From: Dehalococcoidia bacterium
GTDB taxonomy: Bacteria > Chloroflexota > Dehalococcoidia > Lucifugimonadales > CAJWER01
Length of the DNA: 64,000 bases
Reading direction: 5' to 3'
Assembly (NCBI GenBank): GCA_965261325.1
Contig: CBDHCU010000001.1
Coordinates: 357,620-421,619, forward strand
The notes under the pieces are model-generated. The model was not told where the DNA came from and made no database searches. It worked only from the letters and a program-made list of their open reading frames with translations. Made by a program: the position numbers and the translations under genes. Shown here in pieces: positions 42,813-42,845 of the stretch (position 1 is the first letter of the stretch; each line of letters starts with the position of its first letter).

Positions 42813-42845
42813 CCCCCCCCCCCCCCCCCCCCCCCCCCCCCCCCC
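42813..42845 (+). repeat. Poly-C tract, 33 nt (G33 on the minus strand)
   Basis: Counted directly as 8+10+10+5 C between gtcgta and gaaatc. It ends 50 nt upstream of the ATG at 42896. Confidence 0.95.

Follow-up and report, generated by a model that had tools for sequence, protein, structure and literature searches.

Why should an uninterrupted run of 33 cytosines stand directly in front of a gene of more than 21 kb in a bacterium of the Dehalococcoidia? The run (C33) was found in a 64,000-nt stretch of DNA (assembly GCA_965261325.1, contig CBDHCU010000001.1, positions 357,620 to 421,619; the whole stretch analyzed is hereafter called the window), ahead of an adhesin-like gene that we refer to as giant gene 3. 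The original prediction, made from the letters of the window, had placed a 33-nt poly-C 50 nt before this gene. Direct reading and a run-length census agree with it: the tract fills 42813-42845 of the plus strand without interruption (G33 on the minus strand), has ...gcgttgtcgta as its 5′ and gaaatcatgcc... as its 3′ neighbor, and is followed by a 50-nt spacer and the ATG at 42896. The comparisons described below support C33 as a real poly(C)/poly(G) simple-sequence tract, prone to slippage, that belongs to the 5′ control region of a family of accessory giant genes. The tract and the gene behind it are laid out as follows.

42813-42845, plus strand: the C33 tract (G33 on the template strand of the downstream gene), identified by reading, by the census and by its counterparts in orthologues
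42846-42895, plus strand: spacer or leader of 50 nt, from C33 to the first ATG
42896-46465, plus strand: first open segment (frame A) of giant gene 3, with the signal peptide at 42896-42997
46125-46150, plus strand: 1-nt frameshift site inside an fn3 repeat, where frame A reads ...PDAPNAPTAGFKTVRS and frame B reads LLLTWDAQTGATGYDVRYR
46026-60506, plus strand: second open segment (frame B) with fn3, cadherin, PKD and Big_2 repeats, ending in a TAG
60507-64000, plus strand: the same frame reopened after the TAG and open to the end of the window

Chance would hardly produce a tract of this length. The rest of the window gives P(C|C)=0.298 and P(G|G)=0.305, at which about 1e-12 C or G runs of at least 33 nt are expected in 64 kb, and about 7e-3 runs of at least 14 nt, in keeping with the predicted rarity of such a tract in bacterial DNA. 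Apart from C33 and a C14 run at 25676-25689, C/G runs in the window stop at 7 nt, and among the remaining homopolymers none exceeds a T8. The exact count of 33 should be read as roughly plus or minus a few bases; long homopolymers are the weakest point for any sequencing chemistry. The G33 of the minus strand contains, by inspection, at least four G runs of at least three, so that the G-quadruplex suggested for it is possible by sequence motif. Poly(C)/poly(G) runs are generally under-represented in prokaryotes (PMC2831843).

Counterparts of the tract were found wherever the beginning of the gene was found. Among 98 database proteins scored, residues 1-160 of the product were matched only by P0001, P0002, P0003, and P0006 (loci L019-L023); L001 and L002 were obtained from a genome scan, and a scan of Joint Genome Institute metagenomes with the N-terminal profile returned no relatives. 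The loci lie on Dehalococcoidia chromosomes, on long contigs and on one contig whose name points to a circular element of about 200 kb. This N-terminal module is common only to the window gene and six orthologous loci. The comparison of the orthologous locus in related genomes, which the original prediction had proposed as a check, revealed a sense-strand C tract or its remnant 16-57 nt 5′ of the start codon in 7/7 recoverable loci with the module:

Window: C33, 50 nt to the ATG
L001 (OZ253489.1): C20, 57 nt to the ATG
L019: C21, 20 nt to the ATG
L022 and L023: C12 each, 17 nt to the ATG
L020: C15, 17 nt to the ATG
L002 and L021: CCCCTCCCC, about 16 nt to the ATG

The tract is poly-C on the sense strand in every orthologous locus. 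Two types of 5′ region can be distinguished, one with a long spacer of 50-57 nt (window and L001) and one with a short spacer of 16-20 nt (the other five). An upstream flank consisting of a gene for 79 amino acids (aa) and about 75 nt is common to L001, L019, and L022/L023. On this comparison the tract appears to have travelled with the gene. The window gene itself opens with a canonical signal peptide, MGMTRPHLLRLFVALAAIGLLVALAALSSGPAQA. A second ATG in the same frame, at 42902, lies opposite the orthologues' start codons in the alignment and is likely the true start.

Evidence on the variability of tract length, all of it from sequence comparison, is mixed. L019 and L022 share 91.6% identity around the start codon, with a C21 in the former and a C12 in the latter. 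L022 and L023, each from its own sample, differ by 39 substitutions (99.74% identity), and in both the tract is C12. A locus unrelated to these is represented in two metagenome-assembled genomes (MAGs), as L004 and L005; over 3.6 kb the two show no mismatch, and their one gap, of 6 nt, is a C13 versus a C19 on the plus strand of the locus. On the coding strand this is G13 (L004 1077-1089) versus G19 (L005 2527-2545), which encodes a C-terminal run of glycines at the end of a hybrid kinase-response regulator of 813/815 aa (...MAKAGGGGQ* vs. ...GGGGGGQ*). The reading frame is kept, and random sequencing noise would not be expected to prefer such an in-frame change. The L004/L005 tract ends 9 nt before the start of a gene which by eye is DegV-like. 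Taken together, the data support a slippage-prone, contingency-type repeat.

Long G/C tracts characterize the lineage. In about 326 kb of Dehalococcoidia-like DNA, the focal tracts and four other G/C runs of 13-22 nt were found (L004/L005 counted once), and 223 kb from other taxa retrieved with the same query contained no G/C run of 10 nt or more. The second long tract of the window indicates that the lineage carries such tracts elsewhere:

25676-25689, plus strand: C14, intergenic, 196 nt 5′ of a methyltransferase gene

The gene downstream of C14 (25886-26713, plus strand) encodes a class I S-adenosylmethionine-dependent methyltransferase that is 48% identical to the one beside two tracts at locus L003. 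No counterpart of C14 was found in the loci of an 86%-identical methyltransferase homologue (L029-L031). A promoter-like site at about 25500, before C14, was picked by hand and lies below the scan threshold; it is a lead only. At L003, a G17 (4403-4419) and a C22 (4823-4844) have MarR-like and methyltransferase genes as neighbors. Between them a divergent pair of good sigma-70-like promoters, which are consensus matches only, lies at 4631-4658 (plus strand) and 4684-4656 (minus strand) and would place the tracts about 160 and 235 nt into the predicted transcripts, each as poly-C. L003 matched no Rfam family. All three other intergenic tracts (C14 of the window, C22 and C17 of L003) are poly-C on the strand read towards the next gene.

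Where does the tract lie with respect to the promoter? The original prediction had left the choice between promoter and 5′ leader, and the leader is the likelier part of it: scanning the surroundings of the tract for a sigma-70 consensus in the window, L001, and L022 gave no sites, and no -35/-10 pair brackets it there. Hexamers resembling a -10 element reach only 4/6 matches in the window (AATCAT, GCTAAT), and its 50-nt spacer contains only a weak Shine-Dalgarno-like AGGG; a TAG at 42887-42889 closes the upstream frame that is in phase with giant gene 3. In L001, TACAAT, a good -10 hexamer, lies 12 nt 3′ of the tract; the 38-nt leader beyond it includes a Shine-Dalgarno sequence, AGGGAG. TAAAAT in L019/L022 and TGGTAT in L002/L021 are found 12-16 nt 3′ of the tract, where in these short-spacer loci they overlap the sole start codon giving the signal peptide, and L020 has no -10-like hexamer 3′ of the tract. 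Since five of the seven loci have spacers of 16-20 nt, there is no room for a promoter downstream of the tract in them, and either transcription enters the tract from a start farther 5′ or the gene is silent. Parsimony places the tract most likely in transcribed leader or intercistronic RNA and not between promoter elements. An extended -10-like sequence, TGGTATAGT, was noted by eye at 42643-42651, about 165 nt 5′ of C33; it is below the scan threshold and serves as a lead only. If active, it would place C33 about 155 nt into the transcript.

Our preferred reading, which we put forward tentatively, is that of a leader contingency repeat whose slippage would alter its length and reduce read-through into the 21-kb gene via Rho and/or polymerase stalling, with graded expression as the result. 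Replication slippage would change the tract length and give rise to subpopulations with different expression of the gene, as at a contingency locus. The tract would act in cis and strand-specifically from the leader, where the transcript would carry a long, unstructured, G-free C run right before the ribosome-binding region and RNA polymerase would have to copy a G run of the template. Read-through would then most probably be lost in a length-dependent manner, the suggested route being Rho loading on poly(C) RNA and/or stalling of the polymerase at the G-run or quadruplex template. The outcome would be a graded “volume” control, heritable and reversible between cells, rather than a sharp on/off switch.

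Poly(C) is a classic optimal ligand and cofactor of Rho. The RNA of C33 (33 C, no G) is C-rich, G-poor, and unstructured, like the untranslated nascent RNA of Rho utilization (rut) sites. Natural rut sites are C>G “bubbles” of about 70-80 nt, not homopolymers, and we know of no natural rut site of variable length. In six RNA folds, covering six loci, the tract was largely unpaired in both the minimum free energy and the centroid structures, and no conserved hairpin of the tract with the ribosome-binding region was found in these folds. A hairpin sequestering the ribosome-binding site, formed by the C tract and G-rich start regions, was considered and rejected: the tract was largely unpaired, and the folding energies (z-scores of 0.3 to 1.8) did not improve on those of shuffled sequences.

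The gene that would be controlled is itself damaged. Giant gene 3 encodes fn3, cadherin, PKD, and Big_2 domains and forms one reading unit, broken by one frameshift (46125-46150, a site without a homopolymer) and one in-frame TAG at 60504-60506 inside a repeat unit (GSVTA*VAAGAGY), as the original prediction had suspected in describing a locus with frame defects and possible decay. With these two lesions, what remains to be controlled in the window is, at most, an N-terminal product of about 1,080 aa. The orthologues of L001 and L020 are broken by TGG to TAG at codon 47 and by CAG to TAG within the signal peptide, respectively. That of L019 is frameshifted near aa 345, those of L022 and L023 near aa 465 (the name of the L023 contig implies about 619x coverage), and that of L021 is fragmented. 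The L002 orthologue is intact over at least the first 500 codons. Giant gene 3 is decaying in the window and in most relatives, and C33 may be a product of relaxed constraint.

Mobile elements have also entered the tract. An IS4-like insertion sequence (IS) and its derivatives of about 180-200 nt, which are miniature inverted-repeat transposable elements (MITEs), have a common terminal inverted repeat, ACATACCCCTGTCAG, and are located at 906-2458 in L020, at 2155-3484 and 8900-9330 in L021, and at 9670-9905 in L002. The transposase scored best against IS4-family models, below their cut-offs. Two independent IS/MITE insertions are found inside the giant-gene tract, with adjacent copies parted by short C runs. 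In L021/L002, a flank 85% identical to L022 9629-9977 ends in ...cctgcttaCCCCCC, is followed by two MITE copies and continues with CCCCTCCCCgaacagg...ATG; because the shared flank and CCCCTCCCCgaacagg are split by the two MITEs, the point of insertion was within the tract. The independent event in L020 reads C6, MITE, C7, IS4-like IS, C15. One other complete IS copy has an 11-bp target duplication (CTGGACACCGG) that is not C-rich, and the tract is therefore called a hot spot and not the exclusive target of the element. The tract is interruptible by point mutation or by IS/MITE insertion.

The link between IS and tract consists of the insertions in L020, L021, and L002 only. A derivation of the window tract from an IS/MITE end (ACATACCCC...) was considered and rejected, the tract flanks of the window, L001, and L003 being without significant similarity. 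We regard as quite unlikely the broader proposal that sense-strand poly-C leader tracts are lineage-wide, length-tunable attenuators before accessory genes, giant adhesin-like genes among them (acting through Rho loading or through a poly-proline brake in an upstream open reading frame, uORF) and also landing pads of IS4-family IS/MITEs in probably invertebrate-associated Dehalococcoidia. The inverted repeat of the IS/MITE itself contains CCCC. If the proposal were true, one sequence would couple stochastic expression control to gene inactivation and mobility. Elsewhere in the window, at 5380-5474 and about 500 nt 5′ of giant gene 1, the sequence resembles a remnant of the 3′ end of an IS4-like transposase gene; its terminal repeat (CCCCTGCCA) is degenerate, and C5, GCGAACACGG, and a T8 stretch come next.

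Other explanations of the tract have to be weighed against these observations. An assembly or sequencing artefact (a chimeric join, two-color poly-G tails or a consensus error), or a non-templated tail at the junction of a mobile cassette, is very improbable. It would agree with the unique flanks on both sides of the window tract and with the lack of gene 3 at the syntenic position in relatives of 88-91% identity. However, at least five independent assemblies, drawn from at least three samples, and also two GTDB chromosomes have tracts at the same place, the sequence 3′ of the tract leads straight into a conserved signal peptide, and where lengths differ elsewhere in the lineage the frame is preserved. 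In five loci homology extends to the upstream flank, hence the tract is no junction there. Because the tract recurs in independent assemblies, an assembly artefact, raised as a caveat in the original prediction, is largely excluded. A promoter switch as in Bordetella fim or Neisseria opc, in which the C stretch would serve as the -35 or upstream region and its length would set the distance or phase between an activator and the -10 element for on/off expression, appears unlikely. The layout of L001 (TACAAT, leader, and AGGGAG) does resemble fim with a C stretch replacing the -35 element, the TAAAAT and TGGTAT hexamers of L019/L022 and L002/L021 come 12-16 nt after the tract, and the upstream flanks vary while tract and gene stay together, as for an outermost promoter element. 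The 50 nt from tract to ATG in the window also fall within the 21-80 nt class rated likeliest to overlap a promoter (PMC1891110). Yet a transcript starting from the overlapping hexamers of L019/L022 and L002/L021 would lack the ATG and the signal peptide, L020 has no such hexamer, the window offers only its 4/6 hexamers and no promoter by scan, and a fixed spacing is impossible with a tract of 12-33 nt. Membership in the promoter-spacer subclass thus leans negative on sequence criteria. Of the slipped-strand phase variation originally predicted, the part that holds is the presence of orthologous tracts of differing length at the same place; the part that finds no support is the promoter-spacer geometry.

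Translation offers a further route, which we consider improbable: the tract would be read as poly-proline in a uORF, its length would set the frame of the uORF and thereby whether this ends at the main start codon (coupled re-initiation), is fused to the gene in frame or overruns the start out of frame, and stalling at poly-Pro would form an EF-P-dependent brake. The uORF of L001 (MFNPVTANATEARRTAAGLLALFIP7..., 9837-9988) ends in a TGATG overlap with the main ATG, as does that of L002 (9880-9935), and the uORF of L019 (10001-10111) is fused in frame, so that the gene caller made one protein, P0002; an in-frame fusion through the tract is found in L019 only. Of the three frames that run through the window tract, two reach a stop 6 or 20 nt ahead of the ATG, and the focal lengths 12, 15, 21, and 33 are divisible by three (post-hoc p of about 0.05). 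Against such a switch, the peptide is unconserved (7 non-synonymous and 2 synonymous differences between L001 and L019 by our own count), the Shine-Dalgarno-like G run of the uORF is 13 nt from its ATG, no uORF start with a ribosome-binding site is present in the window, each locus has frame relations of its own, and at 65% GC open frames of 20-40 codons often arise by chance. Doubtful as well, yet to be taken seriously given the widespread decay of the gene, is the view that the tract has no regulatory role and is a self-perpetuating hot spot of slippage, fork stalling and IS landing before a decaying gene, C33 being its largest expansion. The longest tract sits in flanks that are not homologous to the others, the IS/MITE insertions that divide the tract in L020 and L021/L002 show no trace of counter-selection, and the tracts of the lineage occur in unrelated contexts, one of them coding. 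Neutral homopolymers would, however, be expected to be interrupted and to decay, as in L002/L021, whereas pure runs of 12-33 nt are kept at the same position across loci about 72-77% identical in protein; such runs are under-represented in prokaryotes (PMC2831843), and the signal peptide and the N-terminal 1,080 codons are intact in the window. A leader contingency repeat remains the reading that we prefer, and several observations weigh against it. The gene is broken in the window (frameshift near 46140, TAG at 60504) and in L001, L020, L019, and L022/L023, so that selection for a switch may be weak or gone. The C12 shared by L022 and L023 points to a tract that is not dramatically unstable at the consensus level, and the sense-strand poly-G of L004/L005 does not fit a model of poly-C in RNA. 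Local alignments of the window flanks of C33 (200 nt 5′ and 50 nt 3′) with the orthologue flanks do not surpass those of shuffled sequences and indicate no homology, so the argument for common descent of the window tract comes from position only; position and gene are its sole ties to the orthologue tracts.

How does the tract compare with known systems? As in the class of phase-variable genes with a promoter simple-sequence repeat, C33 lies directly upstream of a gene for a secreted or surface protein. It lies outside the open reading frame (ORF) of giant gene 3 and so differs from coding, frame-shifting contingency loci such as the poly-G tracts of Campylobacter jejuni, pilC of Neisseria, and bvgS and bapC of Bordetella, to which the coding G13/G19 of L004/L005 in this lineage is the likeness. 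In Neisseria meningitidis, opc, porA, and fetA have a G or C homopolymer in the control region of a surface-protein gene, with slipped-strand length variation; those tracts are about 9-14 nt long and lie between or beside the -35 and -10 elements, and a tract of 12-33 nt cannot be a promoter spacer. The C-stretches of Bordetella fim2, fim3, and fimX resemble the tract in being pure poly-C tens of nt 5′ of a surface-protein gene in a genome of high GC. Across three Bordetella species, the fim3 stretch is C13, C22 or C6TC3 and the fim2 stretch C12, C20 or C9TC8, the interrupted forms being those of the third species (PMC1891110). Orthologous lengths likewise differ or are interrupted here, with C12-C33 and CCCCTCCCC. 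In Bordetella the tract overlaps a functional BvgA-activated promoter, and single-base changes alter the transcript level; here there are no identifiable promoter elements and no known activator site, most orthologous tracts are 16-20 nt from the ATG, the length range is wider, the maximum (33) is longer, and the phylum is Chloroflexota. The closest precedent for a variable homopolymer located in a leader is the length-variable G-repeat of the Helicobacter pylori tlpB leader, a target of the small RNA RepG that provides gradual post-transcriptional control (PMC8295292). There, poly-G RNA is paired by a C/U-rich loop of the small RNA, whereas here the RNA would carry poly-C.

By anatomy and comparative behavior, the tract is a contingency-type homopolymer of the same kind as the fim C-stretches. 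The classic Bordetella and Neisseria setting invoked in the original prediction does not apply to the organism, which belongs to the Dehalococcoidia (Chloroflexota) and is not a classical Gram-negative pathogen. In the library of papers searched we found no report linking Chloroflexota, Dehalococcoidia or sponge symbionts with homopolymer phase variation, and no paper citing the accession numbers. What is new here is the lineage, the length of the tract, its association with giant eukaryote-like adhesin genes, and the repeated capture of IS/MITEs.

The gene and its tract belong to a variable part of the genome. The nearest relatives of the N-terminus are found in the Dehalococcoidia MAGs OZ253489.1 (77% aa identity) and OZ253476.1 (75%). 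A core block of 6 kb (35274-41259), with genes for VWA-like, PP2C-like, kinase-like, membrane, and MscS proteins, is syntenic with the 3.3-4.1 Mb chromosomes of relatives (L024, L026-L028) at 88-91% nucleotide identity, and the MscS neighbor gene is 89-93% identical to genes on contigs of 3.3-4.1 Mb; farther homologues in that match list carry the source names Dehalococcoidia, SAR202 or Chloroflexi. Those chromosomes lack both giant gene 2, to the left of this block, and giant gene 3 with the tract, to its right. Look-ups of proteins identical to those of the window gave no same-strain allele of the locus, the source contig being masked in the data compared. The absence of giant gene 3 and the tract beside a syntenic core block marks them as accessory DNA, and because both flanking giant genes are missing in relatives, the giant genes are located in variable islands. 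Giant gene 2 (28880-35002) is intact and encodes 2,040 aa with fn3, PKD, and cadherin domains; giant gene 1 (5973-23096) is intact as well and encodes 5,707 aa with repeats that by eye look like leucine-rich and cadherin repeats. Neither has a homopolymer upstream of it; a strong ribosome-binding site, AAGGAG, belongs to gene 2. An element of about 85 nt (…gtaccttgccgttcggcctgagcttgtcgaaggccccaattgtgg…), also noted by eye, occurs at 5738-5822 upstream of giant gene 1 and at 25385-25470 downstream of an ORF of 520 aa.

One orthologue is located on a contig of a different nature. L023 (ena:ERZ26694896:ctg116689_619.04x_c, 199,766 bp) carries, besides the giant-gene orthologue, genes for ParA/CbiA, Toprim, AAA_25, and HNH domains. 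By our reading of its name, the contig suggests a circular molecule of very high coverage. With the ParA-, Toprim-, AAA_25-, and HNH-domain genes and a name implying a circular form and about 619x coverage, L023 looks plasmid-like and is possibly a large Dehalococcoidia plasmid. The N-terminus query also matched MAGs of known invertebrate-symbiont groups, and a marine invertebrate may be the host.

Upstream of the tract, the window contains two further features.

42612-42812, plus strand: unique upstream flank of 200 nt
42245-42592, strand not assigned: three REP-like (repetitive extragenic palindromic) units (GGGGATGGGTTCCCGC...GCGGGAATGACG), between a divergent 159-aa ORF and the unique flank

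No further copy of the 200-nt flank was present in the sequence data compared. The 159-aa ORF (41852-42331, minus strand) is divergent from giant gene 3. The REP-like family, GGGTTCCCGC-N4-GCGGGAATGAC, has five matches in the window versus 0.01 expected, and its sites are 42245-42592, 35199-35223, 38371-38395, 41319-41370, and 5052-5076. A 52-nt inverted pair (41319-41370 and 42541-42592, 96% complementary) brackets the 159-aa ORF. An Rfam search of the whole window gave nothing at the gathering threshold and only chance-level matches (E of at least 0.15) in the REP cluster, and a search of the window for tRNA genes found none.

To our knowledge, contingency loci before surface-protein genes have been described almost only from cultured pathogens; the same comparative signature is now found in an uncultured Chloroflexota lineage. 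It also calls for caution, as the tracts, frameshifts, and stops are real and should not be “polished away” or taken for misassemblies. If neutral, the tract would still mark a fragile, IS-attracting site and would help to explain the frequent breakage of the giant genes. Giant eukaryote-like fn3/cadherin genes are thought to mediate host contact in symbionts of marine invertebrates. If the tract modulates their expression, such symbionts would diversify their surface stochastically, and per-read tract lengths could be mined in long-read metagenomes.

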